A stretch of 64,000 nt of DNA from Candidatus Zixiibacteriota bacterium (GTDB taxonomy: Bacteria; Zixibacteria; MSB-5A5; GN15; FEB-12): assembly GCA_020346225.1 (NCBI GenBank), contig CP070777.1, forward strand, positions 303,976 through 367,975. Direction: 5' to 3'. Each line of letters begins with the position of its first letter. Positions within the stretch are counted from its first letter, which is position 1. A program made the position numbers and the translations under genes. Shown here piece by piece: positions 7,694 to 54,892 of this stretch. The notes under the pieces are model-generated. The model was not told the origin of the DNA. It did no database searches and worked only from the letters and a program-made list of their open reading frames with translations.

Positions 7694-7913
7694 AATAACC
7701 GAAGAGAACGGTCTTCCGATGGGGCGTATCGATTACTCCGGTACGGTAAATACCGCCTGCCTGGCCTATGTGCCCGAGGTTAAGATCGGCCAGTATGTTA
7801 TTGTTCACGCCGGGTTCGCCCTGAGCATCATCGACGAAGAGGAAGCGCGGAAAACGCTCGACCTGATGGGCGAGATGTTCCCGGGCGACTTGGGAGCGGG
7901 GGAAGAGAAGTGA
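7662..7913 (+). CDS. hypC: Hydrogenase maturation chaperone HypC/HupF
   Basis: GTG at 7662 yields the invariant N-terminus MCLAIPGKV. The ORF-track start at 7641 (TTG) would bury the essential Cys2. Confidence 0.9.
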
Positions 7914-9016: not shown

Positions 9017-9019
9017 GAC

Positions 9020-10075
9020 ATGGCAAAGAAGATAAAGCCCGAAGACCTTACCTGCCCGCTTCCCATCACCGAGCATGACACCATTCAGCTGGCGCACGGC
9101 AGCGGCGGCAAAATGATGACCGACCTGATCAGCAGACTGTTCGTATGGGCTTTCGATAACCCGGCTCTGAACAAACAGGATGACCAGGCTGTGGTCGAAA
9201 TTGGCAAACAAAGGCTGTCTTTTACCACTGATTCATTCGTAGTTGACCCCATATTCTTTCCCGGCGGCGACATCGGCGAACTGGCCGTGTACGGCACGGT
9301 CAATGATATCTGCATGAACGGAGCCAGACCGCTGTACCTGTCGGTCGGGATGATTATCGAGGAAGGCATGCCGCTGGCGGACCTCGAGAAGATAGTCGTT
9401 TCGATGAAGCGGGCTGCCGAAGAAGCGGGGGTTGTGATAGTCACCGGCGATACCAAGGTCGTCAACAAGGGCAAAGGGGATAAGCTTTTCATCAATACCG
9501 CCGGGATAGGCATTCTGGAGCACGATTATACGATATCAGCCGACCAACTCAGACCCGGTGACAAAATACTCCTCAGCGGCACTATCGGCGACCACGGCAT
9601 AGCGGTACTGTCCAAGCGTGAGGGCCTTTCGTTCGAAACGCCCGTTGAAAGCGATACCTGCCCGCTCAATTCGCTCGTTGCGCAGATTCTCAAGGCGGGT
9701 CATGTCCACGCCATGCGTGACCCCACCCGCGGGGGCGTGGCCGCCACTCTAAACGAGTTCGCTCATGCTTCGGATGTCGGTATTCATATCCGCGAGGACC
9801 ATATCCCCGTCAAGCCGGCGGTGTCAGGGGCCTGCGAGGTTTTGGGTCTTGACCTCCTCTATGTTGCCAACGAAGGGAAGCTGATTGCTGCAGTTCCGCC
9901 GGATAAGGCTGAGGCTGTGCTTAGGGCAATGAAATCGCATCCCTTGGGCCAGGATGCCGCGATGATCGGCGAGGTCACGTCCGAGCAGCCGGGGATGGTG
10001 TCGATGACCACGAGAATCGGCGGCCGGCGCATCGTCGATATGCCGGTCGCCGAACAACTGCCGAGAATTTGTTAG
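9020..10075 (+). CDS. hypE: Hydrogenase maturation protein HypE
   Basis: PurM/AIR-synthase-like repeats. Conserved C-terminal PRIC. Confidence 0.92.
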   Translation: MAKKIKPEDLTCPLPITEHDTIQLAHGSGGKMMTDLISRLFVWAFDNPALNKQDDQAVVEIGKQRLSFTTDSFVVDPIFFPGGDIGELAVYGTVNDICMNGARPLYLSVGMIIEEGMPLADLEKIVVSMKRAAEEAGVVIVTGDTKVVNKGKGDKLFINTAGIGILEHDYTISADQLRPGDKILLSGTIGDHGIAVLSKREGLSFETPVESDTCPLNSLVAQILKAGHVHAMRDPTRGGVAATLNEFAHASDVGIHIREDHIPVKPAVSGACEVLGLDLLYVANEGKLIAAVPPDKAEAVLRAMKSHPLGQDAAMIGEVTSEQPGMVSMTTRIGGRRIVDMPVAEQLPRIC

Positions 10076-31708: not shown

Positions 31709-32716
31709 ATGAGTAAATCAAGCTTGATTAAGTACCTCGCCGCCGCCGCGGCTTTCTCTCTGGGCCTTTTCGCCTGTGAGGAAATCGACGTCCCCTACGT
31801 GATAGACGAAGAAGAGATCATGCGCTACATCGTTGAGTCCGATGTCGGCGTAGAACTTTTCCGCACCGACAGCCTTCTGCCGTCCAATCCCTACGTAATA
31901 CCGGACGACCCCGACGCTTTCTATGTGGACCGCGTGGATTCCGTCACTCGCATCTATGACATCTACATTCTGGTCGATAATTTCGGTTCGGAAGACCGCG
32001 AGTACATCCAGGATTTCGGCCCGCCCATCGGCGTGACCAGAGGTGCCGAGGCTACCGTTACCGATAACTTCTATATCCGCACTATCCGCTATGAGGGTGG
32101 CGACTCGACCGTTTATCACATGGTAAGGCCGGTCATCAGGTATGGCTTCTTCGTGAAACTCGGTGATGACAACCAGGCCTTCAGAGGCTGGCTCTTGATG
32201 GCTTTCAGCGGCGGCGGGCCGTTCGCACGCCAGAGCTGGCTGGGAACTTCCCGCGTACAGGGGATTCGTCCCGACAACACGACCTTTCCCGCTGACAGCG
32301 TCACTTACTATGACATTCCCTTTCTCATGATCGATATCACCAACAGGCCCTGGGATACGCTCGAAAACTACTTAGGCAGGACCAGGTTCTCCTATCTGTG
32401 GCTGAACGGAGATCCGCAGGTGACCAGAATTGACGATGGCGCGCAGTTGCGGTTCCGGGTGACCGAGCTGGGCGACTCCACTCTCTTCTACACGCTTGCC
32501 GGGGAGACCACGGGCGATTTTGCGGTCAGTGTTCTGCAACCCGATTCGGATTCCCTGCCCGTTGCTTCCATAAGCACGCCCTCGGATAATTCGCGGCCGT
32601 GGAATGTCGTTTACCTTCAGGAGTTCTGCGTCCCCTCGGGCAGCCCCGTCACCTTCACCTCCATAAACGCTCTCGAGATAAAAGGGTGGTGCGTGCCCTA
32701 CCGCGTCGGTGACTGA
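31709..32716 (+). CDS. Hypothetical lipoprotein (335 aa)
   Basis: Lipobox SLGLFAC. No family recognised. Confidence 0.6.
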   Translation: MSKSSLIKYLAAAAAFSLGLFACEEIDVPYVIDEEEIMRYIVESDVGVELFRTDSLLPSNPYVIPDDPDAFYVDRVDSVTRIYDIYILVDNFGSEDREYIQDFGPPIGVTRGAEATVTDNFYIRTIRYEGGDSTVYHMVRPVIRYGFFVKLGDDNQAFRGWLLMAFSGGGPFARQSWLGTSRVQGIRPDNTTFPADSVTYYDIPFLMIDITNRPWDTLENYLGRTRFSYLWLNGDPQVTRIDDGAQLRFRVTELGDSTLFYTLAGETTGDFAVSVLQPDSDSLPVASISTPSDNSRPWNVVYLQEFCVPSGSPVTFTSINALEIKGWCVPYRVGD

Positions 32717-33734: not shown

Positions 33735-33832
33735 TAGGACGAACCTCACCGTCTTGATGCGAACCCTCACGGATCACGCTGTCTTGTCGTTCCCGGCGGG
33801 CAGTGTCAGGCAGCCCGTTTCAAAAGGATGTT

Positions 33833-34477
33833 ATGGCCCAGCGGCTATACCGCATTGTGACAATCATTACCGCGATTGTCGTCCTGGTATTGTTCGGCTG
33901 TGATTGTTCCACCGATAATCCGTCCGGACCGCAGGCGCCGGTGGTGACCGGGACGGCCAAGAGTGTTTCCGGCCTCGATGCCGGCTCCGGCGGTGGCGGG
34001 CCGCGCAAGAATCTGGTCCACAACCCCGGCTTTGAATCCGGTTTCGCCCTGTGGCATCCGGTGTTCTATGCTCACGGCTGGAGTGTGTCCGGCTACAACC
34101 CGCACGGCGGCGACTCCTGTATGACCTTTACTTTTCCCGACGATGCCGGTTTCTACAGCGCCGCCATAGAAACCGATCCGTATTTTATGTTCATAGAGCA
34201 GGACGTTGCCTATCGCTTTTCGTTCTGGCTCCGTGAAAGATACACGCACAAACCGGGGCACCCCGATTTATCCATAGTCGGCTGCTGCGTTAAAGTGAAC
34301 GGCAACTGTTACTCCAACCACCCGCTCATCTTCCCTTCCCAGGACTGGCAGTTTGTAAACGAAACGATGATCTTCCCCGAAAGCGGTCAGGCGGCGGTTC
34401 ACTTCCGTGTCTATGGTTATGCCACTTCGGCGGGCGCCGAATTCGCCCTGGATGATATCGTCCTTATGAAAAAGTAG
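33833..34477 (+). CDS. Lipoprotein with a CBM4/9-like jelly-roll carbohydrate-binding-type domain
   Basis: ATG 33833. Lipobox VLFGC. LVHNPGFESG..W start and FALDDIVLMK end, typical of CBM_4_9-type beta-sandwiches. Confidence 0.68.
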   Translation: MAQRLYRIVTIITAIVVLVLFGCDCSTDNPSGPQAPVVTGTAKSVSGLDAGSGGGGPRKNLVHNPGFESGFALWHPVFYAHGWSVSGYNPHGGDSCMTFTFPDDAGFYSAAIETDPYFMFIEQDVAYRFSFWLRERYTHKPGHPDLSIVGCCVKVNGNCYSNHPLIFPSQDWQFVNETMIFPESGQAAVHFRVYGYATSAGAEFALDDIVLMKK

Positions 34478-34639: not shown

Positions 34640-34819
34640 TAAGTGAAAGGCGAATTAGTCGCTGACCGCATTGCCTTGCTCTCACGAGCGGGAGGATTTT
34701 CTACACGACAAGGCGGCATGCTATCTGCTGGTTCAGGGGGTGCATCACAACGATTGAAGCACCGTATCACGTACTCCCGAGGCAGTTTGTTTATTAAACT
34801 CCGAGCAAGGGAGGATTCC

Positions 34820-35578
34820 GTGAGACGCATTTTAACCTGTCTTATGGTCGTTTCGGCGGCAGCCTTGATAGGCACCGGCTGCTCCCGGGACAGCTCTACC
34901 GGCCCCGACGATTTTGCCAACGGTCGAGCCACTGCGGTTCAACAGTCACTGGTCACCGGGATAGACTACTTCGACGTCGGCTACCCGTACGTCGCCTGGC
35001 AAGATGGCTTCGAAACATACACCGTCGGTACCTGGCCGCCGACCTTCAAGGCCGACGGCAACGCTCCAGTCCCGCCCAACGGTATCGTCAATGATGTTTT
35101 TTATGAAGGGGCTCAGAGCCTCCGACTCTACGGAGTGGTTGGCGGCTGTTGGGCCGGGTGTGCTTACCGTGCCCTTACCGTATCACCGCCGTACGAAGTC
35201 AAGGTGGCCGTTTACAACGGTAATGAACCGCTCTCGAGTTCGTGTCAGCCGGCTCGCGGCCACGTGGGCATTTTGGCCGGCACCAACTGGTGGGATCCCT
35301 GGCGAACCTTTGTTTATTTTAACCGTTACGGCGAAATTATCAGCAGCGGCGGTGAGGTGCTCGGTACCTACAACAGCCTGGAATGGTACCTGCTGAGGAT
35401 ACGGTATGAACGTATCGATGAGGGTAATGTGCGCCTCAGGTACTGGGTCAACAACAGGTACATACTGTCTGAAACGCTGCCTGTTCGCACCGAGGAAGAT
35501 AACATGGTAACCCTGACATTCGAGGCCCTGGAAGGAAGCGCCTGGTTCGATGCGGCCGAGGTGCGTGACCGCCACTGA
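34820..35578 (+). CDS. Lipoprotein with a LamG/concanavalin-like jelly-roll domain
   Basis: GTG 34820, 5 nt after GGGAGGA. Lipobox LIGTGC. DGFE..W, GAQSLRLYG and SAWFDAAEV pattern. The ORF-track start at 34643 adds an implausible 59-aa extension before the signal peptide. Confidence 0.62.
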   Translation: MRRILTCLMVVSAAALIGTGCSRDSSTGPDDFANGRATAVQQSLVTGIDYFDVGYPYVAWQDGFETYTVGTWPPTFKADGNAPVPPNGIVNDVFYEGAQSLRLYGVVGGCWAGCAYRALTVSPPYEVKVAVYNGNEPLSSSCQPARGHVGILAGTNWWDPWRTFVYFNRYGEIISSGGEVLGTYNSLEWYLLRIRYERIDEGNVRLRYWVNNRYILSETLPVRTEEDNMVTLTFEALEGSAWFDAAEVRDRH

Positions 35579-35631: not shown

Positions 35632-35659
35632 ACAGGGGTTCAGATACCTGAACCCCTGT
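35632..35659. terminator. Perfect 12-bp hairpin between convergent genes
   Basis: ACAGGGGTTCAG (35632-35643), loop ATAC, CTGAACCCCTGT (35648-35659). No strong U-tract on either side. Confidence 0.5.
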
Positions 35660-35729: not shown

Positions 35730-38700
35730 CTACTTCAGAAGAACCATCTTCTTCGTCACGGCTCGGTCACCCGCCGTTAGCCGGTATAGATATATCCCCG
35801 AAGCTACCCGCTCGCCCCGGCTGTCGGTGCCGCGCCAATCGATACGATGTGCTCCCGCCGGTAGCCGCTCCCGGTCAACAAGGGTGTTCACTCTTTGTCC
35901 GAGGATATTGAATATCTCCAGAGTCACGTTGGCGGCCGCCGGTAACTCAAAGCAAATTACCGTGCCGGGATTGAACGGGTTCGGGTAATTCTGTCGCAGC
36001 GTGAATTCTCCCGGCAGAGATAATGTCTCACCCGGCGGCGCGTCGGTCGGCACTCCCTGAAATATCTGACTCACCAGTTCGCGGGCGGCGTCCAGCTCCA
36101 TATACCACAGGTGGAAACCGAATATGTAAGTCTCGGTGCTGTCGGTCTTCAGCGTGGCGGCGACAGTGTAGCCGTCGATCCGCGATGTCTCCGGATATAT
36201 TGAGGTGTAGCTATAGAGCGGTTGCGCCCCGGCGCCGGTAGCGAAGCATGCCACTGCCGGCGGGGTGGCATCCTGCCAGTAAGCTGTCACGTAGGCAGTA
36301 AACGGCTGGCGCGCGATGTCGAAAGCGATGGCGGGCAGGGTGCCGACGAGCGGCTGCGCCGAGCCGAAGCCGAAGCAGGAATCGTAGTTCAGCGGCAGCG
36401 AGTTATACAGATAGTACCGGTGGTGGTAGAAATACAGTGAATCCACCCCGAAGTACGGTTGAATGAACCAGTCGTTCTGACGGTAGTACTGGCCCACATT
36501 GGCTTCGAAGAAGTTCATGCCCTTGAATTCTCCGAAATACGCCACCTTTCCGCCCGACAGCAGATATTTTTCAAAGCGGTGATACTTGCTTTCCGACGAG
36601 GTCTTGAGCATGCCGTCGTAATCCTCGCCGTCGACAATGACCATTTCGTACCGGGTAAGGTCCCGCCAGTCCATGCAATACTCGTCCATCGTGGGATCAC
36701 AACTGTTCACGATAATCGTATCCTTGTAACAGTACACGTCGATATCGAGGTCAAGGCCGGACCGCAGGCCGTCGTAGAAATCCATCACCGTGTCCGGATG
36801 TGCGAGAACACCGTTGCCGAGCTGCGTGATAAGCAGAATGTCACGGGTTGTCTCATACACCTCGCAGGCCTGTACCGCCGATGAGAACTCGGATTCGAAA
36901 CCCTCTTTGTCCACGGCGGTAATAACGTAGGAGGCGTCGTTGAGCGGTTCCGTGTCTTCAAAAACGTAGGTCCCGGAGTCGACCGAGGCGAACGGATCCA
37001 TGGCGAAGTAGTAGCAGGTTATGCTGTCCTCGGTTATCTTAAAACTGTCTTTCGGAACGAGGGGCGGGTCGGGTATCGTATAACTGTAAAAAGGTTTGTA
37101 GAGCAACGATATCCCCTCGATGCTGTCGGCCCGGTATATGTTGTAGTGGCTGAGGTCGGCCTCGGTGGAGTCGGTCCATGTCAGCGCCGCCGGTATACCC
37201 TGCGCGTAGTAGAGCCGCGACCCGTCAGGGACGGGCGCCGCCATGCGTCCACGCTGGGTGATGACGACTCGCTCGCCGCTCAGTGCACCGGTGCCGCCGG
37301 AGAGTCGATGAGCGGCGGCGGCAAAGTAGAACTTGTGTGGGTCGAGGCCGGTAAGAGCGCAGGAGGCTGTTTTGCCTACCGAAGCGGCCGGTTCGAAATC
37401 TTGCGGCTCCAGCCACGGCGGCACCAGGCCGGGGTAGGGGAGAGTATCCTCGGGAACCTCAGAGAGAAAAATATCGTACCCGTCATAATTGTCAAAAACC
37501 CAGGGATCCCAGACCACCACGACCGAATCCCAGTCCTCAAACGCACCTTCCAGTCCGGTGACGGGTCGAACCGGATCCCGCAGGATCACGGATAACTCCT
37601 CAGCGCGGCCGGCATTGGCGAGGACGTCGCTAAAATCGAGATTGGCCAGATAGCCCGTGGGATTATCAGGAAGGTTGAGAGGGTTCCACGTCAACCAGTG
37701 AACGTGGTCCGCTGTGAACATGGCGAAGATCAGCCTGATGCTCGAGTCCGGCGCCAGCTCGAACGGCCCGTAAGACATCAGGAACTTGGTATCGCAGCCG
37801 TCGGTATAATCTTCAGCTTTGGACTGCGGGGGATACATCCATACCGGGTCATCGGGCTCGATGCTGGCCGTGAAAACCTGGTCGTAATCCCACTCTGGGT
37901 GGCTGAGCATGTAATATTTGTTGGTGTCGCCTGTTGGAGTGCCCAAACCGTTGGTTTCAAAATCGAAGAACGGGTCATCAGGAGTGCCCAGCAGTCGCGG
38001 GCCGAAGTCCCACTCCGCGTAAGTACTGCTCGTCCACCAGTTGAAGTTGGTATCGGCTATAGCGTGAGACGAGGCCAGCAACCTGAAGGCAAAAATCTTC
38101 TCCAGGCTGGTGGCCGGGTCGAACTCGTACCCATCCGGGTCGCCGTCATTGTCGATTAGGTAGCCTATCCCGTGTTCTCTTATTGAACCGCTGATATCGT
38201 CCTGGTACCCGAAAGGTGAAGTAATCAGCAGCACATCGCCGTCCATATAGAACCCTATATAGCACTCGCTGATATCCTGTGTGCCGATGTTCGATATGAC
38301 CATGTCATAGGCAACGATGTCTTCGTAAGTATCGTTTCGCCAGACGTGGCTCCTCAGGACTATCTTGACGTTCAGCGGCACGTGAGGCACAAGGGTGAAG
38401 GGGTCTATATACTCCGCTGTATCCGTATATACGGCGCGCATGGAGTAGTCCGAGAATCCCTCCAACCCGGTGACCGAGCCTATCGGATAATTCGGCGGAG
38501 AGAACTCCTCTCCGGAGGTGCTCCATCCATCCCATCCTGTAGAAACCAGAGTGTCGCTTCCGATTCGACCACCCACCCAGAGCGCGCTTGTAAATAAGTA
38601 ATCTTTGCCGCTATAAGACGGTGTACGGAAACCGGCCTGCGGCCAGCCGTAGTCTGGATACCCGTATGTGCCGTTGTAACTGGCAAACCTGCCGAAGCAA

Positions 38701-38927
38701 TCAAAAGAGGTATTGACCATACCGGTTTGCTGGACACCGTAGGGGACTGGACAGGGGATATCCGGGTCGTCCATCAACGAACCCGTCTGGTCTACCCACA
38801 CCACCGACGGCGTTGCCGGAGCTGCCGCCTTCTCTTCGTCGTAAAGCAGTGAGCGACCCTGGACCGGCGCAGCCCATGCCGCAATAGCAAGCAACAAACT
38901 CCCCGTACCCATGACTCGTGAAAACAT
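35730..38927 (-). CDS. 1065-aa secreted protein of unknown function with a T9SS (Por) type-A C-terminal sorting domain; paralogue B
   Basis: Signal peptide (LLLAIAAWAAPVQG). Large N-terminal module, Fn3-like middle, alpha/beta-like module. C-terminal LRQNYPNPFNP...LEIFNILGQRV...GIYLYRL...KKMVLLK. Confidence 0.85.
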   Translation of the reverse strand: MFSRVMGTGSLLLAIAAWAAPVQGRSLLYDEEKAAAPATPSVVWVDQTGSLMDDPDIPCPVPYGVQQTGMVNTSFDCFGRFASYNGTYGYPDYGWPQAGFRTPSYSGKDYLFTSALWVGGRIGSDTLVSTGWDGWSTSGEEFSPPNYPIGSVTGLEGFSDYSMRAVYTDTAEYIDPFTLVPHVPLNVKIVLRSHVWRNDTYEDIVAYDMVISNIGTQDISECYIGFYMDGDVLLITSPFGYQDDISGSIREHGIGYLIDNDGDPDGYEFDPATSLEKIFAFRLLASSHAIADTNFNWWTSSTYAEWDFGPRLLGTPDDPFFDFETNGLGTPTGDTNKYYMLSHPEWDYDQVFTASIEPDDPVWMYPPQSKAEDYTDGCDTKFLMSYGPFELAPDSSIRLIFAMFTADHVHWLTWNPLNLPDNPTGYLANLDFSDVLANAGRAEELSVILRDPVRPVTGLEGAFEDWDSVVVVWDPWVFDNYDGYDIFLSEVPEDTLPYPGLVPPWLEPQDFEPAASVGKTASCALTGLDPHKFYFAAAAHRLSGGTGALSGERVVITQRGRMAAPVPDGSRLYYAQGIPAALTWTDSTEADLSHYNIYRADSIEGISLLYKPFYSYTIPDPPLVPKDSFKITEDSITCYYFAMDPFASVDSGTYVFEDTEPLNDASYVITAVDKEGFESEFSSAVQACEVYETTRDILLITQLGNGVLAHPDTVMDFYDGLRSGLDLDIDVYCYKDTIIVNSCDPTMDEYCMDWRDLTRYEMVIVDGEDYDGMLKTSSESKYHRFEKYLLSGGKVAYFGEFKGMNFFEANVGQYYRQNDWFIQPYFGVDSLYFYHHRYYLYNSLPLNYDSCFGFGSAQPLVGTLPAIAFDIARQPFTAYVTAYWQDATPPAVACFATGAGAQPLYSYTSIYPETSRIDGYTVAATLKTDSTETYIFGFHLWYMELDAARELVSQIFQGVPTDAPPGETLSLPGEFTLRQNYPNPFNPGTVICFELPAAANVTLEIFNILGQRVNTLVDRERLPAGAHRIDWRGTDSRGERVASGIYLYRLTAGDRAVTKKMVLLK

Positions 38928-38985
38928 CGGTCCCTCCCGCGGAACTCCCGGCCGGATTCATTCCCGCCGACCCTCCGCGTATCTC

Positions 38986-39013
38986 AATATGCAATAATTT
39001 CCAAATTTGTCAA
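38986..39013 (-). promoter_or_regulatory. Possible promoter for paralogue B
   Basis: On the minus strand, TTGACA (39013-39008), 16-nt spacer, CATATT (38991-38986). Confidence 0.35.
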
Positions 39014-39155
39014 CTTTACTGTGAGGCGTTTTGATTGTCTTCAGGGCAGCGGCGGGGTGGCTCTTAGGATAATGACGAAACTGGGACCGGCGTTGTTTAA
39101 ATCTATGACCGGGCTCCTGTTGACCGGAGTCTGTCCGGCACCCGGACCAAGATGC

Positions 39156-42100
39156 CTATCTGACCAGCATCATCTTCCGGCTGTAATGGTTCTGACCGTA
39201 CCGGATCCGGTAGAAGTAGATACCCGACGAGACCGGGCGGCCATCAGGGGCCGTGCCGTTCCACTCCGCCACGTGTGTGCCGGCCTCCAGGGGGACTCCG
39301 TCGAGGAGCACCCTTACCCGCCTGCCCAGGATATTGAATATTTCCAGTGTAACCTCGCCGGCGCGCGGCAGGTCGAAGGTAATTCTCGTGGCCGGATTGA
39401 AAGGATTGGGATAGTTCTGTCGCAGGGCAAACCGGGCGGGCAGGGCGGCCGGAGCGGCATCCCGTTCGTCGGTCGGCGATCCCTCGAACAGATAGTCCAC
39501 CAGTTCCCGGGCCGACTCCCGCTCGATGTACCACAGGTGAAACCCGAAGAGGTAGGTTTCGAACTCGCCTGTCGTCAGCCTGACACCGACTGGGTCGCCC
39601 TCGAGCCGGCTGCTCACGGGATAACGCGAGCGGTACCGGTAAAGCAACTCGGCGTTATCGTTAACATGGAAAGTCGATACGGAGGGCGGCGTTTGGTCCT
39701 GCCACAGGTTCCGGACAAACGGGCTGATCGCCCCGCCCAGACTGTCGAAAGCCAGGACCGGCAGGTCGGCGGCGCACGGCTCGGCTGCGGCGAACCCGAA
39801 ACAGGTATCACTGTCGATCGGCAACTCGTTATAGAAGTAATAACGATAATGCTGGAAATACAGCGAGTCGATCCCGAAAAATCGATTCACAAACCAGTCG
39901 TTCTGGAGGTAGTAACAGGACTCGTAGCCGTCAAAGTAGTTCATGCCGTTAAGGCAGCCGAAATAGGCCAGCCGGCCGCCCGAAAGCAGGTACTTGGCGA
40001 ATGTATGAACGTTCTCTTCCGCCTTCTGCGTCATCAGATTGTCGTATTTTTCACCGTCGAAAATCGTCAGCCTGAACCGCGTGAAATCGGCCCAGTTGAT
40101 GCATCCCGGCTGACTCGGATCGCAATAATAGTCCGCCACCGTATCGAGGACGCTGTAGACGGCGTAGTCGTAGTCGGCCAGTACGGATTCATAAAATGCC
40201 CGAACCGAATCGTACACGCCAAAGTAACTGTTGCCCAGATTCGTGATCAGCAGGATATCCCGCGTTTGAGGATATACCTCCAGCAGTTGAAGCGGGGAAG
40301 AGAACTCGGATTCAAACCCTTCCTCGTCCGTCACCGTGAGAACGTAATATTCCCCGTTAGTCGGAGAGACGACCTCGAAAGCGTTGACGTCCGGCTCCAC
40401 CGTGACGTAGGGCTCCATGGCATAATAGTAATAGGTGTCGTCACCTATATAGAAGGTATCTGCCGGCTCGATGGCCTCACCGGGGGCCGTCTTGGTGTAA
40501 AACGGACGGTACATGTCCTGAAGCGCCTCTTCGTCGGGGAACCGGTACAGAGTGTAATGGTCGACTTCACAACCTGTCGCGTCTTCCCACTGAATGGTCA
40601 CCGTCTCGCCGCTGATGAAGTACTCGTAGTCTTCCTGTACAACCGGTGGCTCGAGGCGGCCTCTTTGTACCGCGCATTCCGGCTCGCTCAACTGGCCGAT
40701 ACCGGCCTGTGACCGTGGCGCTATGCTCAGAAAATAAAACTTGCCGGGGTCGAGATTGTCCAACTTATGCCGGTAGGTCGGGCCGACTGAGGCTATCGGC
40801 CCCAGGTTGGCCGGCTGATACCAGGGGGGTACCAGCCCGGGGTAGGGCAACGAGTCCTCCGGAATCTCGGCCAGGTAAATGTCGTAGCCCTCCACCTCGC
40901 TGAACGTGAAGGGGTCCCATTCGATTACCACGGAATCCCAGCTTTCGGTCACCACTTCCAGACCGGTCGCCGGAAGCATGGGGTTCAGCAGCGAGTCGGC
41001 CAGCGCTCCCGCCCGTGCAATGTTCGCGATCAACCCGTCAAAATTGAGATTCCGAACGTACCCCAGAGGATTATCCGGCAGATTATAGATGTTCCAGATT
41101 AACTCGTGGACCTCGTCAGCCGTGGACATGGCATACAGAACCCGCACACTTGAGTCGGGAGCAATGTCGAATGGGCCGAACGACAGGACTATTTTGACGT
41201 CGTACCCGTCAGCCAGATCGGCCGCCATGTCCTGGGGAGGATAACACCACTGCGGGTCATCGGGCGGAATTATCGCCGTGAGCACCTGGTCGTAATCCCA
41301 CTCGCGATGCTTAAGAAGATAGTACTTGTTGCGGTCGCCCTCGGGAGTCCCCAGTGTGCCCGTTTGGAAGTCGAAAAACGGGTCCTCCGATGTGCCGAGC
41401 TGACGCGGCCCGAAGTCGACGTTGACGCCAAATCTGTTTACCCACCAGTTGAAGTTGGTGTCTTGGACGGGTTGTGACGCCGCCAGCAGAGACAGCGCCA
41501 GCACCTTGCGCACGCTGGTGGTGGAGTCGTAATCGCCCCCTACCGGGTCACCGTCGGCGTCAATGACATACGCTATACCTTGATCCCGGAGCCCGCCGGC
41601 GACGTCATCGGTCCAGAAATAGTCCTTACTCTCGTGACCAACGTCGCCATCGACGTATATTCCGATGTATCCCTGCTCGATATCCTGACTCCCCAAGTTC
41701 GTCATTACCAGGTCGTAAATCACAAAATCCTGATACTCGGGTGCCCGCCAGATGTGGCTCCGGTTGACCACGCGCAGATTCAGCGGCACATGGGGTCGCC
41801 CGAAAAAGTCGCGCTCGACATACTGCGTGATCGTGTCGGTGAAGATGGCCCGCATCGCCTCGTCGGAGGGGTAATCGAACCCGGTCACCGACCCGTAGGG
41901 ATGAGTCGGGGGGAAAAACTCGCGACCGACTATGTACCCCCAGCCGTTAAGACCGTGCGATACCAGTGTGTCGCCGCCGACAACCCCGCCGATCCAGAGG
42001 GCCCCCATCCACAGGTACTCTTTGCCGCTTCCGGGCGGTGTCTCGAAGGAAGCGGACGGCCAGTCCGGAATGGAGGGATACCAGGGCGTCGCCCCCATGC

Positions 42101-42335
42101 CGAATAAGCCGTAACAGTCGAAGGAGACGTCCACTGAACCCGTTTGCTGAACACCGTACTTGGTGGGCCAGGGGATGTCAGCGTCGTCGAGCGGGTCCCG
42201 GACGCTGGCCTCGTCAATGCTGCTATCATCGAGCCGCGTTATGTCCAGCGGCGAGCGCGCCGCCCCCTGGCCGCCAGTAAATACCAAGAGTAAGGGGATT
42301 ATACAGTACCGACCAACCGCTCCCGGCAAGCTCAC
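39156..42335 (-). CDS. 1059-aa secreted protein of unknown function with a T9SS (Por) type-A C-terminal sorting domain; paralogue A
   Basis: Collinear with 35730..38927. C-terminal LRQNYPNPFNP...LEIFNILGRRV...GIYFYRI...RKMMLVR. The GTG at 42335 sits directly on the SD GGGAGG, so the TTG at 42329 (5-nt spacing) may be the real start. Confidence 0.85.
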   Translation of the reverse strand: MSLPGAVGRYCIIPLLLVFTGGQGAARSPLDITRLDDSSIDEASVRDPLDDADIPWPTKYGVQQTGSVDVSFDCYGLFGMGATPWYPSIPDWPSASFETPPGSGKEYLWMGALWIGGVVGGDTLVSHGLNGWGYIVGREFFPPTHPYGSVTGFDYPSDEAMRAIFTDTITQYVERDFFGRPHVPLNLRVVNRSHIWRAPEYQDFVIYDLVMTNLGSQDIEQGYIGIYVDGDVGHESKDYFWTDDVAGGLRDQGIAYVIDADGDPVGGDYDSTTSVRKVLALSLLAASQPVQDTNFNWWVNRFGVNVDFGPRQLGTSEDPFFDFQTGTLGTPEGDRNKYYLLKHREWDYDQVLTAIIPPDDPQWCYPPQDMAADLADGYDVKIVLSFGPFDIAPDSSVRVLYAMSTADEVHELIWNIYNLPDNPLGYVRNLNFDGLIANIARAGALADSLLNPMLPATGLEVVTESWDSVVIEWDPFTFSEVEGYDIYLAEIPEDSLPYPGLVPPWYQPANLGPIASVGPTYRHKLDNLDPGKFYFLSIAPRSQAGIGQLSEPECAVQRGRLEPPVVQEDYEYFISGETVTIQWEDATGCEVDHYTLYRFPDEEALQDMYRPFYTKTAPGEAIEPADTFYIGDDTYYYYAMEPYVTVEPDVNAFEVVSPTNGEYYVLTVTDEEGFESEFSSPLQLLEVYPQTRDILLITNLGNSYFGVYDSVRAFYESVLADYDYAVYSVLDTVADYYCDPSQPGCINWADFTRFRLTIFDGEKYDNLMTQKAEENVHTFAKYLLSGGRLAYFGCLNGMNYFDGYESCYYLQNDWFVNRFFGIDSLYFQHYRYYFYNELPIDSDTCFGFAAAEPCAADLPVLAFDSLGGAISPFVRNLWQDQTPPSVSTFHVNDNAELLYRYRSRYPVSSRLEGDPVGVRLTTGEFETYLFGFHLWYIERESARELVDYLFEGSPTDERDAAPAALPARFALRQNYPNPFNPATRITFDLPRAGEVTLEIFNILGRRVRVLLDGVPLEAGTHVAEWNGTAPDGRPVSSGIYFYRIRYGQNHYSRKMMLVR

Positions 42336-42424: not shown

Positions 42425-42895
42425 TCACTTGTGATAATCGGTACCGTGTATTATGGAGAAAGCTCTGAACAGTTGTTCCAGTACGACCAGCCTGACGAGC
42501 TGGTGCGAGAATGTGAGCGGCGAGAGCGAAATAACCCGTTCGGCCCCCTTCAGAATCGATTCGTCCAGCCCATAAGGCCCGCCCATCACTAAGACGAGCG
42601 GCGTCCGGCCGCTGACCTGTGTTTTTTCGAGCCATTTCGCGAACTTGCCGCTGTCCATCGCCACGCCGTCGTCGGCCAGGGCGAAATATGGCCTCCCGGC
42701 CAGCTTCTTCCTCACCGCCAGCGCCTCTTTTCTTCTTATCTCCGCCGGTGAAAGTGAGGAACCCCTCTTGCACGCCGCCGCCGTTTCAAGCTCGACCCTG
42801 GCATATCGCGACAACAGCCGCACAAAGTGCCGGCACCCCTCGGTGACCCAGCGCTGTTTATCCCGTCCCACCGAAACGATACTGATCTTAGTCAA
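42425..42895 (-). CDS. rlmH: 23S rRNA (pseudouridine1915-N3)-methyltransferase RlmH
   Basis: SPOUT family, 156 aa. KISIVSVGR N-terminus and LVMGGPYG..LSLS..TFSH.. C-terminal knot region. Confidence 0.9.
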   Translation of the reverse strand: MTKISIVSVGRDKQRWVTEGCRHFVRLLSRYARVELETAAACKRGSSLSPAEIRRKEALAVRKKLAGRPYFALADDGVAMDSGKFAKWLEKTQVSGRTPLVLVMGGPYGLDESILKGAERVISLSPLTFSHQLVRLVVLEQLFRAFSIIHGTDYHK

Positions 42896-43286
42896 AAGCC
42901 TGCACCTTGATGATAAGCCGCCGCCGGCGCGGGCCGTCGAACTCGCAGAAGTAAACAGCCTGCCAGGTCCCCAGAACCAGCCGCCCCTTCTCGATCAACA
43001 CCTGCTGCGAAAAACCCATCAGCGAGGCCTTGAGGTGGGCATCCGAATTTCCTTCGGCGTGGTGGTAGCCGTCGCTCTGGGGTATCTCTTTGGCCAGCTT
43101 GTACAGGATGTCCCGGCGCACGTCGGGGTCGGCGTTTTCATTGATGGTTATACCGGCGGTTGTGTGCGGCACGAAACAGTGCGCGACGCCGCTCTGGCGG
43201 CCGCTGGTGTTCACTGCCTCCTGTACCAGATGGGTGACATCGATCAGCTCCTCGCGCTGACGTGACTCCACCGCATACGCTTCCAT
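42888..43286 (-). CDS. yjbQ: YjbQ/UPF0047 family protein
   Basis: ATG 43286 shares TAATG with the ftsY stop. HTTAGITINENADPDV and HLKASL motifs. The upstream ORF-track extension is Arg/Gly-rich junk inside ftsY. Confidence 0.85.
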   Translation of the reverse strand: MEAYAVESRQREELIDVTHLVQEAVNTSGRQSGVAHCFVPHTTAGITINENADPDVRRDILYKLAKEIPQSDGYHHAEGNSDAHLKASLMGFSQQVLIEKGRLVLGTWQAVYFCEFDGPRRRRLIIKVQAFD

Positions 43287-44200
43287 TACGAAAACAGAGC
43301 CTCCGTAAACTGTTTGGCGTCGAAGGCCTGGAGGTCGTCCAGTCCCTCGCCGATTCCGATAAAGTCCACCGGTACTCCCAGTTGTTCGGCTACCGCTATC
43401 ACCACGCCGCCCTTGGCTGTCCCGTCGAGCTTGGTGACGATGATGCCGTCGCAACCCACGGCGTCGGTGAAGACCTGCACCTGCGAGAGAGCGTTCTGAC
43501 CGGTTGACCCGTCTATAATGAGCTTGCTGTAGATGGCCGCCCCGGGCAGCGCCTTGGCGACCACCCGCTTTATCTTCTTGAGTTCCTCCATGAGATTCGC
43601 CTTGGTCTGCAGCCGGCCCGCCGTGTCCACCAGCAGCAGATCGGCCGACCGCGCCCGGGCCGCCTTGGCGCCGTCGAACGCCACCGCCGCCGGGTCCGAA
43701 CCGCTCTGCGATTTCACTATGTCGACGTTGCTGCGCTCGGCCCAGATGGCGATCTGCTCTATGGCAGCGGCGCGAAAGGTGTCACAGGCGGCTATTATTA
43801 CTTTCTTGCCCTCCGAGGAGAACCGCGTTGCCAGCTTCCCGATAGCGGTTGTCTTGCCCACGCCGTTGACGCCGACGATCAGCCACACCACCGGGCGGGG
43901 GTCGCTGTCTTTCAGCAGGGGAGACCCGCCGCGCGAGAGTATAACCTGTATCTCCTCCTTGAGCAGGGCCATTATTTCCTGTCCCTCGCTCAGCTTGTGT
44001 TGCGCGGCTTTTTCCCGGATACCGCCGATGAGTCTTGTAGTGGCCGCCACGCCCACATCGGCCTCGATGAGAATCTCCTCGATATCATCGAGCAAGTCGT
44101 CGTCCAGCCGGCGTTGCGATACCGCCTGCGTGATTCGGCCCAGCAAGTTGGCTTTGGTCTTGCTGAGCGAATTCTTCAGCTTCTCAAATGGGGTTGCCAT
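43286..44200 (-). CDS. ftsY: Signal recognition particle receptor FtsY (NG domain only)
   Basis: GVNGVGKTT, DTAGR, TKLDG SRP-GTPase motifs. Confidence 0.92.
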   Translation of the reverse strand: MATPFEKLKNSLSKTKANLLGRITQAVSQRRLDDDLLDDIEEILIEADVGVAATTRLIGGIREKAAQHKLSEGQEIMALLKEEIQVILSRGGSPLLKDSDPRPVVWLIVGVNGVGKTTAIGKLATRFSSEGKKVIIAACDTFRAAAIEQIAIWAERSNVDIVKSQSGSDPAAVAFDGAKAARARSADLLLVDTAGRLQTKANLMEELKKIKRVVAKALPGAAIYSKLIIDGSTGQNALSQVQVFTDAVGCDGIIVTKLDGTAKGGVVIAVAEQLGVPVDFIGIGEGLDDLQAFDAKQFTEALFS

Positions 44201-50536: not shown

Positions 50537-50671
50537 ATTAAATCTCTTATCCTCATGAGAATATACCGTAACAACTAATAAAGACAACAACTTTAAACAG
50601 GGAAGCCAGCGGAGCAACAATGAAGTATAAAATGCTTGCTAAAACTCAGGGGTCAGCGTTCATTTAGCGTC

Positions 50672-53600
50672 ATGTCGGGGTTGTCTACATCGCTCGGGAT
50701 AGATATCGGCTCGGTTTCCGTTAAGCTCGTTCTCCTTGAAAACGACCGAGTCGTGCGAACTGCCTATCGTCGCTTTCACGGGAGGCCTTTCGAAACCCTG
50801 TGTCAACTTCTCAATGAACAGTTTCGGGACCTCGACGGTTCTTCGCTCAACCTCGGTTTCACCGGTATCGGCGGCAAAACGGCCCGGCGCGTGCTCGGCG
50901 GGAAATTCTTCGGCGAGATCGCCTCGATAGCTGCGGGCAACTTTCACAGCGTGCCGCAGGCCAGGACTATCATCGAGATGGGCGGCGAGGATTCGAAACT
51001 CATCGTGGTCGATTCCCCTACCCGGACCGTCAGGGACTTCGCCATGAACGCGCAGTGTGCCGCGGGCACCGGCTCGTTTCTGGACCAGCAGGCCGCCCGG
51101 CTCAAGATCTCTATCGAGGGTGAGTTCGGCCGGCTGGCTTTAAAGTCTCAAAAGCCCCCGCGGATTGCCGGGCGTTGTTCCGTCTTCGCCAAATCTGACA
51201 TGATTCATCTCCAGCAGATCGCTGCACCGGACTATGATATAGTCGCAGGCCTGTGCTTCGCCGTGGCCCGAAACTTCAAAAGCTCTATTGCCCGGGCCAA
51301 GAAGTTCGAACCGCCCATCGTATTTGAAGGCGGCGTGGCCGCCAACCCGGGCATGGTTCGCGCCTTTGCCGAGATACTCGGGCTGACCGATGGACAGCTG
51401 CAGGTCCCCGAACACTACAACGTCATTGGGGCGCTCGGCGCCGCCGTTCTGGCCGGCGAAAACTCAACCCTGGTCGAATCCTTCGACAGCGAAAAAATTC
51501 GAAGCTATCTGGATTACCGGCAGGTGGTTGCCTCCGGCCGCGAAGCGCTGTCTTTCGATTTTCCGGACTCGAAATACTATGATATAACCATGGCTGACAG
51601 GCCCGCCGATATCGACGATCTGGAGGTTTATCTGGGGGTCGATGTCGGCTCCCTCTCCACCAACCTCGTTCTCATTGACGCTGACCATCGCGTGATCGCC
51701 CGTCGTTACCTCATGACCGAGGGACGTCCCATCGAGGCGGTCCGGCGGGGCCTTCGGGAAATCAGCGAAGAGGTGGGCGACCGGGTAACCGTGAAAGCGG
51801 TCGGCTCCACCGGTTCCGGTCGCTATCTCATCGGTGACCTGATCGGAGCCGATGTGATCCGCAACGAGATTACGGCTCAGGCCACTGCGGCCATCGATAT
51901 CGATCCCGAGGTCGATACCGTCTTTGAAATAGGCGGGCAGGATTCCAAGTACATTTCCATAGACAAGCGGGCGGTCGTTGATTTCGAGATGAACAAGGCC
52001 TGTGCCGCCGGCACCGGGTCCTTCCTGCAGGAGCAGGCCGAGAAGCTCAACGTCAACATAGAAACCGAGTTCAGCGATCGCGCCCTTTGCGCCACCTGCC
52101 CGGTGGGATGCGGCGAGCGCTGCACGGTGTTCATGGAATCCGATCTGGTGGCTCACCAGCGCTCCGGCGCCAGCAAGGATGACCTGTTGGCCGGACTGGC
52201 TTACTCCATAGTCAGCAACTACTTGACAAAGGTTGTCGGAGACCGGCGCGTGGGTGATCATATCTTCTTTCAGGGCGGCGTTGCCTGGAATAAAGCGGTC
52301 GTGGCTGCCTTTGAAAAGATGACGGGCAAGCATGTAACGGTGCCGCCGCATCACGACGTCACCGGTGCTATCGGCGCCGCCATCCTGGCTAAGGAACAAA
52401 TCGATCAACCCGGCTTCGAAACCTCCTTCAAGGGTTTCGATTTTCATAAACGGCGTTATGAACTAGAATCGTTCACGTGCGAAGACTGCGCCAACCAGTG
52501 TGAAATCCACAAGGTGATTCTCGAAGGCGAGGAGCCGCTGTACTATGGCTCGCGGTGTGAGCGATACGAGGTCGACCGCCGCCAGGGGCGGGACCTCCCG
52601 ACGGACTACGCCGCCGTCAGGAAGCGTCTTTTATTCAAGCGCTATTTGGAGCCGGCCGTGGTATCCGGATCAAAAGGAAGGGTCGGTATTCCAAGGGTTC
52701 TTCATTTCTTCGATTATTATCCCTTCTGGCGGGCTTTCTTCGAATCGGCCGGTTTCAAGGTGGTCAACTCCGATGTCTCCAACCAGAAGATAGTGGAAAA
52801 CTCGCTGGAGCTTTTCAGCGCCGAAACCTGCTACCCCATCAAAATCGTCTTCGGTCACGTTGGCAACCTCCTTGACAAAGGCGTCGATTGGCTGTTTCTC
52901 CCGTCCCTCATAAAAGTTGCCGATCAGCAGGAGTTGGCTGAGGAAGGCGCCTATATTTGCCCCTATGTGCAGACCATCGGGTCGACCATTGCCACGTCCT
53001 TCGATTTTGCTGCCGCCGGAGCGAAACTCGTCAACCGGCCCATCAACCTGAGCCAGAATGTCGGTGACTTGCGCCACAAGCTGAAGGGCCTGGCTTCTGA
53101 TTTCGGCCTGTCCGACCGGGAATACAATCGCGCTATCGACGCCGGCCTGAAAGCGTATCAAACCTACCGGCTGGCCTTGCGCGACGAAGGCCGAAAGGTG
53201 CTCGGCCGGCTCGGTCCCGACGAGAAGGCGCTGGTGATAGTCAGCCGCCCCTATAACGGCTACGACCCGAGGTTGTCGCTGGAGCTGCCCGATAAAATAC
53301 GTGAACTCGGCGTGAAATCCATTCCTCTCGACTTTCTGGATACCGGCAATGGCAGCGACGTACCGTTCATGTACTGGCGCTACGGACGCCGCATCCTGTC
53401 GGCCGCCAAGTATATCCGAGAGCATCCCAACCTTTTTGCCGTCTATATCACCTCTTTTGGCTGTGGCCCGGACTCGTTCATTACCCATTTTTTCCGCAAG
53501 GCGATGTCCGGCAAACCCTATCTTCAGCTCGAACTGGACGAACATTCTGCCGACGCCGGTCTGATAACCCGGTCCGAGGCGTTTATCGATTCGCTCCGGT

Positions 53601-54892
53601 TCTACCGGTTCAAGGTGCCAGTAAGCGGCTTCAATATCGCCTGCGATGATTTCCGGCCGTTCGAAAGAACCATTTACATACCGAACATGTGCGACCACGC
53701 CTACGCGTTGCGCGGCGCTTTTGAACGATGCGGACTCAGGGCTGAGGTTCTGGATGAACCCGATGATCTGACCCTGGAATACGGCAAGAAATTTACTTCC
53801 GGCAAGGAGTGTTTCCCCTGTGTTATCACCACCGGAGACATGATCAAGAAGATCAAATCACCGCACTTCGATACCTCCCGGGCGGTGTTCTTTATGCCCG
53901 GCGCCAACGGTCCCTGCCGGTTCGGTCTGTACAGCCAGTTTCACCGGATGATTCTCGACGACCTGGGCTACACCGATATCCCTATCTACTCGCCGAACTC
54001 CGACAACGGCTACGCCGACTTCGGTCTCGACGGCACCGCGTTCCGCAAGATTGCGTGGAAGGGATTTGTCTTCGTGGACTGTCTTCAGAAGCTGTTGTTC
54101 GGCATCCGACCCTATGAAATCAACGAGGGCGAGACCGAGAAAGTATATCTCAAATATCTGGCCCGACTTGACCGCGCCCTGGTTCACGACGAATCGCTGG
54201 ATCGCCTTGGCCGCGAAGCGGCAGCAGCTTTCGCCGCAATAGAAAGGGAGCCCTCGGTGCGCCCGCGTGTAGGTGTGGTGGGGGAGATCTATCTCAGGAA
54301 TAACCGGTTCTCGAATAATCATCTGATTGAAACACTGGAGAAACTCGGCCTTGAAGTGTGGCTGGCCACCTTCACCGAATGGCCGCTGTATACGTCGTGG
54401 AGTTATCAGAAAGACTCCATCTCGCAATTCAACCTCAAGGGTCTGGTCGAGAGTTCCCTGCAGCTTGTTTTCCAGCGTCGGCAGGAACATCGTATCGCCC
54501 GCGCCTTCAGCCGCGATAAACACTTCTGGAGTGACTATCCCGTTGAGAAGGTTCTCAAGCTGGCCTCGGCGTACCTGCCTTTGGATTTCAAGGGCGAGGC
54601 GGTGCTGTCCATCGGAAAAGCCATTGAGATGACTATTGAGGGCGCCGGCGGCATTGTCAACGCAATGCCTTTTAACTGCATGCCGGGTACGGTCGTGTCC
54701 TCCCTGTCGAAGAGGATTTCCGAAGATTACGGCGATATCCCGTGGCTCAACATTTCCTATGAAGGTTTGCGAGACTCCGGCGAGGAAACGCGACTTGAGG
54801 CTTTTGCCGATCAGGCCCGCGCCTACCAGCGCAGCCGCAGCCGTCAAACGACCGCCGAAGCCACCCTGCTGCTGAAAGAGCAGCAAAAGTGA
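50672..54892 (+). CDS. Fusion protein: two BcrA/BadF/HgdC-type activase ATPase domains plus a DUF2229/2-hydroxyacyl-CoA-dehydratase-like C-terminal module
   Basis: Two acetate/sugar-kinase-fold ATPase domains (LGIDIGSVSVK and LGVDVGSLSTN). Each has the cluster-ligand pattern N(A/K).CAAGTGSFL plus RC(S/T)VF. CEDCANQC..GSRCERY Cys block, then GIPRVLHFFDYYPFWRAFFESAGFKVV. ATG 50672 chosen. Confidence 0.88.
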   Translation: MSGLSTSLGIDIGSVSVKLVLLENDRVVRTAYRRFHGRPFETLCQLLNEQFRDLDGSSLNLGFTGIGGKTARRVLGGKFFGEIASIAAGNFHSVPQARTIIEMGGEDSKLIVVDSPTRTVRDFAMNAQCAAGTGSFLDQQAARLKISIEGEFGRLALKSQKPPRIAGRCSVFAKSDMIHLQQIAAPDYDIVAGLCFAVARNFKSSIARAKKFEPPIVFEGGVAANPGMVRAFAEILGLTDGQLQVPEHYNVIGALGAAVLAGENSTLVESFDSEKIRSYLDYRQVVASGREALSFDFPDSKYYDITMADRPADIDDLEVYLGVDVGSLSTNLVLIDADHRVIARRYLMTEGRPIEAVRRGLREISEEVGDRVTVKAVGSTGSGRYLIGDLIGADVIRNEITAQATAAIDIDPEVDTVFEIGGQDSKYISIDKRAVVDFEMNKACAAGTGSFLQEQAEKLNVNIETEFSDRALCATCPVGCGERCTVFMESDLVAHQRSGASKDDLLAGLAYSIVSNYLTKVVGDRRVGDHIFFQGGVAWNKAVVAAFEKMTGKHVTVPPHHDVTGAIGAAILAKEQIDQPGFETSFKGFDFHKRRYELESFTCEDCANQCEIHKVILEGEEPLYYGSRCERYEVDRRQGRDLPTDYAAVRKRLLFKRYLEPAVVSGSKGRVGIPRVLHFFDYYPFWRAFFESAGFKVVNSDVSNQKIVENSLELFSAETCYPIKIVFGHVGNLLDKGVDWLFLPSLIKVADQQELAEEGAYICPYVQTIGSTIATSFDFAAAGAKLVNRPINLSQNVGDLRHKLKGLASDFGLSDREYNRAIDAGLKAYQTYRLALRDEGRKVLGRLGPDEKALVIVSRPYNGYDPRLSLELPDKIRELGVKSIPLDFLDTGNGSDVPFMYWRYGRRILSAAKYIREHPNLFAVYITSFGCGPDSFITHFFRKAMSGKPYLQLELDEHSADAGLITRSEAFIDSLRFYRFKVPVSGFNIACDDFRPFERTIYIPNMCDHAYALRGAFERCGLRAEVLDEPDDLTLEYGKKFTSGKECFPCVITTGDMIKKIKSPHFDTSRAVFFMPGANGPCRFGLYSQFHRMILDDLGYTDIPIYSPNSDNGYADFGLDGTAFRKIAWKGFVFVDCLQKLLFGIRPYEINEGETEKVYLKYLARLDRALVHDESLDRLGREAAAAFAAIEREPSVRPRVGVVGEIYLRNNRFSNNHLIETLEKLGLEVWLATFTEWPLYTSWSYQKDSISQFNLKGLVESSLQLVFQRRQEHRIARAFSRDKHFWSDYPVEKVLKLASAYLPLDFKGEAVLSIGKAIEMTIEGAGGIVNAMPFNCMPGTVVSSLSKRISEDYGDIPWLNISYEGLRDSGEETRLEAFADQARAYQRSRSRQTTAEATLLLKEQQK

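Follow-up and report, generated by a model that had tools for sequence, protein, structure and literature searches.

Paired T9SS-tailed proteins of a Zixibacteria genome belong to a large modular family with interchangeable anchors

How do Zixibacteria, widespread uncultured bacteria of sediments and aquifers whose cell-surface biology is to our knowledge essentially unknown, equip their surface, and what can one locus say about it? The locus in question lies in a stretch of 64,000 nucleotides (the window; positions 303,976 to 367,975 of CP070777.1, GCA_020346225.1), part of a 3.18-Mb contig from a Candidatus Zixiibacteriota metagenome-assembled genome (MAG). An earlier note, made from the sequence alone, had pointed there to two adjacent genes, here called gene A and gene B, as a tandem pair of secreted paralogues with type IX secretion system (T9SS) tails, and had proposed that they form an undescribed surface system. 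The pairing holds and the two-gene system does not: both genes belong to a very large paralogous family whose copy number at this locus varies (two here, three in relatives) and whose anchors can be swapped. What they exemplify is not a new kind of system; they are modular proteins, probably anchored at the surface, that combine two domain families without annotation and in which a T9SS tail and a dockerin replace each other. A definition of both domains would bring annotation to a sizeable share of the predicted secreted proteins of Zixibacteria, and the family offers a testable handle on the surface attachment of proteins and on surface interaction in this phylum.

Two collinear paralogues and their domain map

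Gene A (35730..38927), the distal paralogue, encodes 1065 aa, and gene B (39156..42335), the promoter-proximal one, has a longest open reading frame (ORF) of 1059 aa; these and all features of the pair given below lie on the minus strand. The ORFs are identical to the two window proteins P0001 and P0002, the latter being the public record of gene B, 1057 aa long and named T9SS type A sorting domain protein. Both genes sit exactly where they had been placed, and BLASTP aligns their products over 1018 residues with 50% identity, 65% positives and 11 gaps (1016 bits, E=0), a similarity far above chance that runs from end to end with the exception of the signal-peptide region. The description of the pair as collinear tandem paralogues of about 1060 aa is borne out, and all of the motif blocks listed for them were found, in identical order in A and B.

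A BLAST map of 120 homologues divides the proteins into four units: the N-module at about residues 45-450, a middle region, the C-module at about residues 685-968, and a tail. The N-module occupies residues 45-450 of gene A (37578..38795) and, by alignment with gene A and the family, residues 42-447 of gene B (40995..42212); on the same map it recurs without the rest in a second architecture of about 850 aa. The C-module occupies residues 685-968 of gene A (36024..36875) and, collinear and 48% identical, residues 679-960 of gene B (39456..40301). Both N-termini have, by inspection, the n-, h- and c-regions of a signal peptide. We read by eye a putative signal peptide at residues 1-24 of gene A (MFSRVMGTGSLLLAIAAWAAPVQG; 38856..38927), with a basic n-region, a hydrophobic core and small residues before the cut, and a probable one at about residues 1-27 of gene B (42255..42335). 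At the other end, T9SS type A sorting domains of about 80 aa cover residues 981-1065 plus stop of gene A (35730..35987) and residues 975-1059 plus stop of gene B (39156..39413), and both pass the curated TIGR04183 cut-off of 23 comfortably (37.2 and 36.0 bits, respectively). Among Pfam models, FlgD_ig scores above its cut-off on the tails and Por_Secre_tail (PF18962) reaches 24.0 and 26.4 bits, just below its cut-off of 27. The reading of the genes as a tandem pair with T9SS tails is supported, and their products are probably secreted. The mature proteins are strongly acidic, with an isoelectric point of 4.25.

The middle region had been called Fn3-like, and this stands for its first part. Residues 456-552 of gene B (40680..40970) match Pfam PF00041 (E 9.4e-8; 32.6 bits, cut-off 25), about residues 451-556 of gene A (37260..37577) give a weak Pfam fn3 match (E 0.025), and a family profile searched against the PDB matches the Fn3 domains of receptor phosphatases and titin with E down to 6e-10. 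A second beta-rich linker follows at about residues 557-684 of gene A (36876..37259), where it is Fn3-like by motif only (W..DHYNIYR .. TAVD..G.ES.FS), and, collinear with it, at about residues 553-678 of gene B (40302..40679). Neither copy of this second stretch matches Pfam, and that of gene A has no PDB match either, so the Fn3 assignment is unconfirmed here.

The two large modules gave no Pfam or NCBIfam match at E<=1 and none to PDB sequences, even at E<=1-10; a 61-sequence family profile searched against PDB sequences matched only Fn3 and dockerin entries. By these searches both modules are unannotated domain families, in neither Pfam nor NCBIfam. Public records call family proteins after their tail, Fn3 domain or dockerin, and otherwise 'hypothetical'. 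That the modules lie outside characterized families is upheld at the level of sequence; their folds, by contrast, are recognizable, as described below, and in solved structures these folds serve as accessory and not catalytic domains of glycoside hydrolases and phosphorylases.

A large family with interchangeable anchors

An N-module profile, searched against 1.84 billion representatives, retrieved 4102 clusters (clustered at 50% identity) with a threshold of E<=1e-3, 1665 with E<=1e-10 and 601 with E<=1e-30. When the species representatives of GTDB were scanned with a 5-sequence N-module alignment, 47 loci were found, nearly all of them in Zixibacteria MAGs, and the family occurs almost only in this phylum. 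Members were also seen in MAGs labelled 'uncultured Ignavibacteriales/Ignavibacteriaceae' (L027, L012, L016, L024, L025 and others) and in one labelled Candidatus Deferrimicrobium. The label of L027 is doubtful because the locus has a Zixibacteria-type Band7-orf-UvrB synteny and 71-78% identity to the window proteins, an observation that points to mislabelled or misbinned records.

We took a census of 250 representative family members, with one hidden Markov model built per module. The N- and C-modules are combined with a T9SS tail in 57 of the 250 and with a dockerin in 48; in the shorter architecture, where the N-module is joined to another part, 39 members end in a dockerin and 37 in a T9SS tail; 62 have an N-module and no recognized tail. 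The swap can be seen at a single position in the genome, since the syntenic locus next to Band7-UvrB carries, depending on the genome, either two genes with T9SS tails or two with dockerins. This suggests that surface attachment is what has been conserved, and not a particular route to it. Full-length members with either tail occur side by side in four MAGs. Among orthologues, a type I dockerin (PF00404) exceeds the Pfam cut-off in P0017 and is present at the C-terminus of P0036 as well; it is absent from both window genes. Two further members carry a cohesin ahead of a T9SS tail, an unusual combination: a complete one directly before the tail in P0019 (residues 1523-1743; Pfam, E 8e-11) and a weaker match in P0143 (residues 934-1148). 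The exchange of T9SS tail and dockerin, together with a cohesin placed before a T9SS tail, links two surface-display systems that are usually discussed separately. Other fusions in the family involve FG-GAP/VCBS with Big_5, beta-propellers and, in P0052, a right-handed beta-helix.

The surroundings of the pair are also shared among relatives. As the earlier note had it, smc, ftsY, yjbQ (UPF0047) and rlmH lie directly upstream, and the 3' side holds, on the opposite strand, two small ORFs without annotation, followed by a Band 7 gene, one unknown ORF, uvrB and bamA. Two other Zixibacteria (L001 and L002) keep the order smc-ftsY-yjbQ-rlmH-[family genes]-...-Band7-...-uvrB-...-bamA with three family genes, and a third genome (L050) has two dockerin-tailed full-length genes in the same position. 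Across the loci compared, family genes followed by Band7-UvrB were found at 8 and tandem pairs or triplets at 11. The coding regions of the tandem genes overlap by 4 nt in L001 and L002, consistent with co-expression, whereas the window copies are separated by 228 bp. The additional gene of these two relatives is a short paralogue between rlmH and the two long genes (L001 4537-6822, 761 aa; L002 4579-6810, 743 aa). It consists of N-module, Fn3 and T9SS tail without a C-module, and it is absent from the window; its existence suggests that the C-module is dispensable and that the N-module is the functional core of the family.

Two relatives show further arrangements. Divergent from the dockerin-tailed pair of L050 and beside it stands a gene for a giant T9SS-tailed protein of 3949 aa (1-9326, minus strand), whose matches to PKD and cadherin-like domains are faint. 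In L052 (10001-20738; GCA_900498245.1, LS998015.1), four tandem paralogues of about 860 aa come after a dockerin protein of 291 aa and three genes for M16 peptidases, each paralogue being made of an N-module and a different unannotated C-terminal part of about 400 aa.

The N-module: a predicted beta-supersandwich dense in acidic residues

Both modules were modelled by AlphaFold2 from family alignments, and the models were compared with the PDB by Foldseek. Because the template-modelling (TM) scores of the matches are low (0.30-0.5), the resulting assignments hold at the level of fold class and not of family membership.

The model of the gene A N-module (predicted local distance difference test [pLDDT] 94.6, predicted TM score [pTM] 0.93) shows a beta-supersandwich followed by a small helical subdomain. 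Its best matches, with E about 1e-7 (range to 1e-4), probability 1.0 and TM of only 0.30-0.45, are N-terminal accessory domains of glycoside hydrolase (GH) family enzymes, namely GH15 dextran dextrinase (9ju0), GH116 beta-glucosidase (7w2t) and GH94 phosphorylases including cellobiose phosphorylase (3qde); the corresponding domains of cyclic glucan synthase (8rfe) and of GH149, GH161 and GH63 enzymes match as well, as does the periplasmic P1 domain of the insertase YidC. The predicted fold is thus the beta-supersandwich of the non-catalytic N-domains of GH15, GH94 and GH116. The likeness ends at the fold class, as the N-module differs from these N-domains by a root-mean-square deviation of about 10 A, has many more conserved acidic residues and is not followed by an (alpha/alpha)6 barrel. 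No such catalytic barrel was found in the remainder of the proteins, where Fn3 is followed by the amidotransferase-like domain and a T9SS tail, and no glycoside hydrolase N-domain family was matched by sequence in Pfam, NCBIfam or the PDB.

Fifteen acidic residues together with H182, K337, Y338 and H410 are conserved in at least 85% of 115 N-module sequences. D125, D169, D259, Y338 and D347 are invariant among them; E141, H182, K337, E345 and H410 exceed 90%; and the acidic positions include a DNDGD loop of the kind typical of Ca2+ sites. The fold class, the acidity and the conserved aromatic and acidic residues lead us to think that the N-module is most likely a Ca2+-stabilized ligand-binding module, with a glycan as the probable ligand. 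A zinc metalloprotease or a serine hydrolase was considered and rejected, as neither an HExxH nor a GxSxG motif is present; nor is any Cys column conserved in either of the two modules.

The C-module: a predicted amidotransferase-like domain without its catalytic cysteine

For the module of about 280 aa near the C-terminus, a parallel alpha/beta fold had been suspected from the sequence, and the model agrees. The gene A C-module (pLDDT 90.9, pTM 0.91) is predicted to be a three-layer alpha/beta domain with a parallel sheet, of class-I-glutamine-amidotransferase-like or ThuA-like type and without the catalytic Cys. All 42 PDB chains matched at E<=1e-3 are class-I-glutamine-amidotransferase-like (probability 1.0, TM about 0.5, 8-13% identity; overall E 1e-7 to 1e-3). 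Best among them is domain B of GH42 beta-galactosidases and an arabinopyranosidase (5xb7, 4oif, 5e9a; E 1e-7 to 1e-5), and others are ThuA-like proteins (4jqs, 4e5v), STM3548 (2gk3) and an Ignavibacterium glucosyltransferase (7vkz). No C-module match to PF08532, PF06283, PF07090 or PF00117 was obtained at E<=1 in Pfam and NCBIfam, nor against the PDB with the family profile. A profile of 12 C-module sequences found P0251 as its sole match; this protein starts inside Fn3 and ends in dockerin-like repeats, and we therefore take it to be a fragment of a full-length member and not a stand-alone C-module.

The C-module contains the block H..RYY..D(S/T)CFGF, which had been read as invariant, with a conserved His and Cys. 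The block is identical between A and B, and it is not conserved across the family: in a set of 61 homologues, His occupies position 835 in 4 sequences and Gly in 36, position 836 is variable, and Cys occupies position 851 in 8 and Leu in 27. No Cys column of the C-module reaches 85%. The claim of invariance has to be given up, although the proteins did prove to be something other than generic adhesin repeats. Residues that are conserved include D696, Y760 and D870 along with Y718, D736, D829, D849, S915 and H939 (in FGFHLWY; kept in 59/61 homologues), the last six forming a set of the module's own in comparison with GH42 domain B, ThuA and STM3548. An active glutamine amidotransferase with a Cys-His-Glu triad was rejected, given that no Cys column is conserved and only H939 is kept.

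The earlier note had also left room for a match to a characterized family. Both sequence and fold exclude peptidase C25, with no PF01364 match, no conserved His/Cys dyad and no caspase or gingipain among the top 50 Foldseek matches, and no glycoside hydrolase family was matched by sequence. C25 proteins such as gingipain and PorU do share with A and B the T9SS tail and an alpha/beta domain ahead of an Ig-like C-terminal domain; they differ in fold family, and the NCBIfam PorU match to A and B covers the tail only.

In GH42 enzymes the domain B fold mediates trimer formation without a catalytic Cys, and the C-module shares both the fold and this absence. Since it has no catalytic residues, the C-module is most likely an assembly domain, as judged from the model. 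It differs from GH42 domain B in that it is not joined to a TIM-barrel catalytic domain and is probably extracellular, with an anchor domain behind it.

What the paired proteins may do

The account that we favor, and to which we give an even chance, is that A and B are surface-displayed cargo built on the modular plan of their family: signal peptide, N-module, Fn3-type spacers, C-module and anchor. According to this account, the signal peptides would direct Sec export to the periplasm, and the TIGR04183-type domain would then take the proteins through the type IX pathway across the outer membrane, where the tail is removed and the protein fixed to the surface. That such a tail is a sorting and anchoring signal is established in Porphyromonas and has been proposed for Fibrobacter, and Fibrobacter succinogenes provides the precedent for TIGR04183 tails as surface anchors outside Bacteroidetes (PMC6851124). 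Once outside, the N-module would be the working part, acidic, probably loaded with Ca2+ and of the 'glycoside-hydrolase-type carbohydrate-binding' fold class, held away from the membrane by the Fn3-type domains and facing an external ligand that is most likely a glycan or a particle surface; this step leans on the predicted fold and on conservation. The C-module, from its fold, may serve in assembly or interaction, and possibly pairs the products of A and B. We infer all of these functional steps; the analysis itself shows the paralogy of A and B, their domain map and predicted folds, the lack of the catalytic residues of amidotransferases and C25, the near-restriction of the family to Zixibacteria, its conserved position in the genome and the exchange of T9SS tail and dockerin.

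Several observations weigh against this account. The fold matches of both modules are distant (TM 0.30-0.5, 8-13% identity), and 'carbohydrate-binding' is therefore an analogy of fold class and not homology to a proven lectin. The N-module also conserves Asp, Glu, His, Lys and Tyr at an unusually high density, which would fit an enzyme too. No glycan-utilization genes lie nearby, the neighbors being housekeeping genes (smc, ftsY, rlmH, uvrB, bamA). The T9SS core (SprA/Sov, PorV, PorU, GldK/L/M/N) is absent from the 64-kb window, the only part of the 3.18-Mb contig that could be searched, and within the window only genes A and B carry a TIGR04183-type tail. The family is not mentioned in the literature searched. 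Finally, a neighbor-joining tree groups the tandem copies by lineage and not by position, which points to repeated duplication or gene conversion in place of an ancient A/B split; ancient orthologous groups of A type and B type are not supported by this tree, and neither is an ancient, fixed division of labor between A and B.

A different view of the N-module, possible though in our judgment unlikely, makes it a new glycan-active enzyme, either a hydrolase or a Ca2+-dependent lyase, that is built on the beta-supersandwich and displayed to attack polymers, with the expansion of the family reflecting substrate diversification. It stays the main rival because the conservation is unusually dense; five invariant positions in 115 sequences (D125, D169, D259, Y338, D347) are a great deal for a binding module. 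Enzymes are known on the supersandwich fold, among them galactose mutarotase and, as domain I, the rhamnogalacturonan lyase of polysaccharide lyase family 4 (PL4), and P0052 is fused to a right-handed beta-helix, which is frequent among pectate lyases. Tails of the T9SS and dockerin types are, moreover, characteristic of polymer-degrading enzymes (PMC6851124). Against an enzyme, the best structural matches are accessory and not catalytic, and neither mutarotase nor PL4 is among the top 50 Foldseek matches. There is no match to the sequence families of glycoside hydrolases or polysaccharide lyases, carbohydrate-utilization genes are lacking nearby both in the window and at the relatives' loci, and every one of the conserved acidic residues might serve as a Ca2+ ligand.

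It is also conceivable, and we rate it as distinctly unlikely, that the proteins form a structural surface coat or act as general adhesins, S-layer-like or joining cells to cells or to minerals, without glycan specificity and with a diversity driven by phage or predator pressure. Such a role would fit the conserved core position across the phylum among housekeeping neighbors, with bamA a few kb away (and ompH-lpxD too in a relative), as well as the very large family with its repeated tandem duplication and the strong acidity of the proteins. The FG-GAP/VCBS, Big_5, beta-propeller and cadherin-like domains found as fusions or neighbors are also usual for adhesins. The core of the N-module, however, is highly conserved and not hypervariable, and the repeat architecture typical of adhesins is missing.

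A broader proposal, which we consider rather improbable, is that one paralogous family builds a cellulosome-like surface assembly through two coupled modes of anchoring, with T9SS-tailed members on the outer membrane, some of them equipped with a cohesin (P0019, P0143), and dockerin-tailed members of the same genomes plugging into these cohesins, so that a conserved, Ca2+-rich and undescribed glycan-binding or glycan-cleaving N-module would capture particulate organic matter in sediments. The data are compatible with it because the two tail types co-occur in four MAGs, cohesin and dockerin pass their Pfam cut-offs and the N-module family is unannotated. A type I dockerin terminates about one third of the sampled family members, and a cohesin occurs in a few, as in cellulosomal proteins; in contrast to cellulosomes, the window genes have neither domain and no glycoside hydrolase modules are involved. 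Because the host is diderm, the logic of anchoring would also differ from that of Firmicutes cellulosomes.

That the C-module is a Cys/His enzyme, whether a gingipain- or C25-like peptidase or an amidase of glutamine-amidotransferase type acting through the H..RYY..D(S/T)CFGF block, is very improbable: the identity of the block in both copies, the Cys-His-Glu enzymes that the class I glutamine amidotransferase fold includes and the conservation of H939 speak for it, and they are outweighed by the rarity of the His and Cys at positions 835 and 851, the variable H836, the lack of a Cys column of at least 85%, the absence of a Peptidase_C25 or GATase match in Pfam at E<=1 and the lack of caspase or gingipain structures among the top 50 fold matches.

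Returning to A and B as anchored cargo, their nearest described counterparts are T9SS type A cargo proteins such as the gingipains of P. gingivalis, the ChiA/SprB-type proteins of Flavobacterium and the cellulases of Fibrobacter succinogenes, with which they share a modular passenger, probably a signal peptide, an Ig-like sorting domain of about 80 aa and the expectation of surface attachment (PMC6851124). Unlike these, A and B have passenger modules that fall in no described family, and their orthologues at the same locus exchange the tail for a dockerin. The host phylum differs as well, as no T9SS is described for Zixibacteria in the literature searched, where we also found no paper on T9SS, dockerin or FlgD-like tails in this phylum.

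Start sites and transcription signals of the pair

A strong Shine-Dalgarno sequence, GGGAGGGA, stands immediately 5' of the gene A ATG. For gene B, the TTG at 42329, which would give a protein of 1057 aa, is the more likely true start, since a GGGAGG Shine-Dalgarno lies 6 nt upstream of it and the public annotation has the same length. The gap between rlmH and gene B is 90 bp.

A promoter of its own had been suggested for gene A. The site exists in the B-A gap, as a sigma-70-like TTGACA-16 nt-CATATT (38986..39013) with 10/12 matches, 59 nt before the ATG. Shuffled sequence, however, has such sites just as often (3 found here against 3.5 expected), and the consensus may not be that of this phylum; a separate promoter for gene A is plausible and statistically unsupported. 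Gene A and the plus-strand ORF 34643-35578 converge on a perfect 12-bp hairpin (35632..35659) that lies between their ends. Its RNA folds at -27.2 kcal/mol (z = -5.5; 0/200 shuffles fold as well), and it is probably a bidirectional terminator.

Other features of the window

Two plus-strand ORFs convergent with gene A (33803-34477, 224 aa, and 34643-35578, 311 aa) have lipoprotein-like N-termini (LFGC and GTGC) and no Pfam match at E<=1. They have no counterpart in other syntenic loci of Zixibacteria, where a gene for acetyl-CoA synthetase or acyl-CoA dehydrogenase takes their place. The 335-aa ORF at 31709-32716 (plus strand) has no Pfam match, and its position between Band7 and uvrB is kept in several Zixibacteria loci at 31-40% identity. 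Antisense ORFs of up to 563 aa inside genes A and B (39021-40712 and 37698-38159, both on the plus strand, and similar ones) are shadow ORFs of GC-rich coding sequence and not genes. The yjbQ/UPF0047 ORF (42888-43454, minus strand) has 188 aa, with the Pfam domain at residues 72-184, and its orthologues have 132 aa; the N-terminal extension, which overlaps ftsY, is probably an artefact of choosing the first start codon. Elsewhere in the window (among 40-3690, 5225-10075, 10079-12967 and 50636-54892) are a PAS histidine kinase accompanied by a sigma-54 activator, hypF and behind it two ORFs that stand where hypD/hypE would be, a 1418-aa fusion of the BcrAD/BadFG-type CoA-enzyme activase and a 962-aa ORF with a weak DUF5122 beta-propeller match, which has no T9SS tail of the A/B type.

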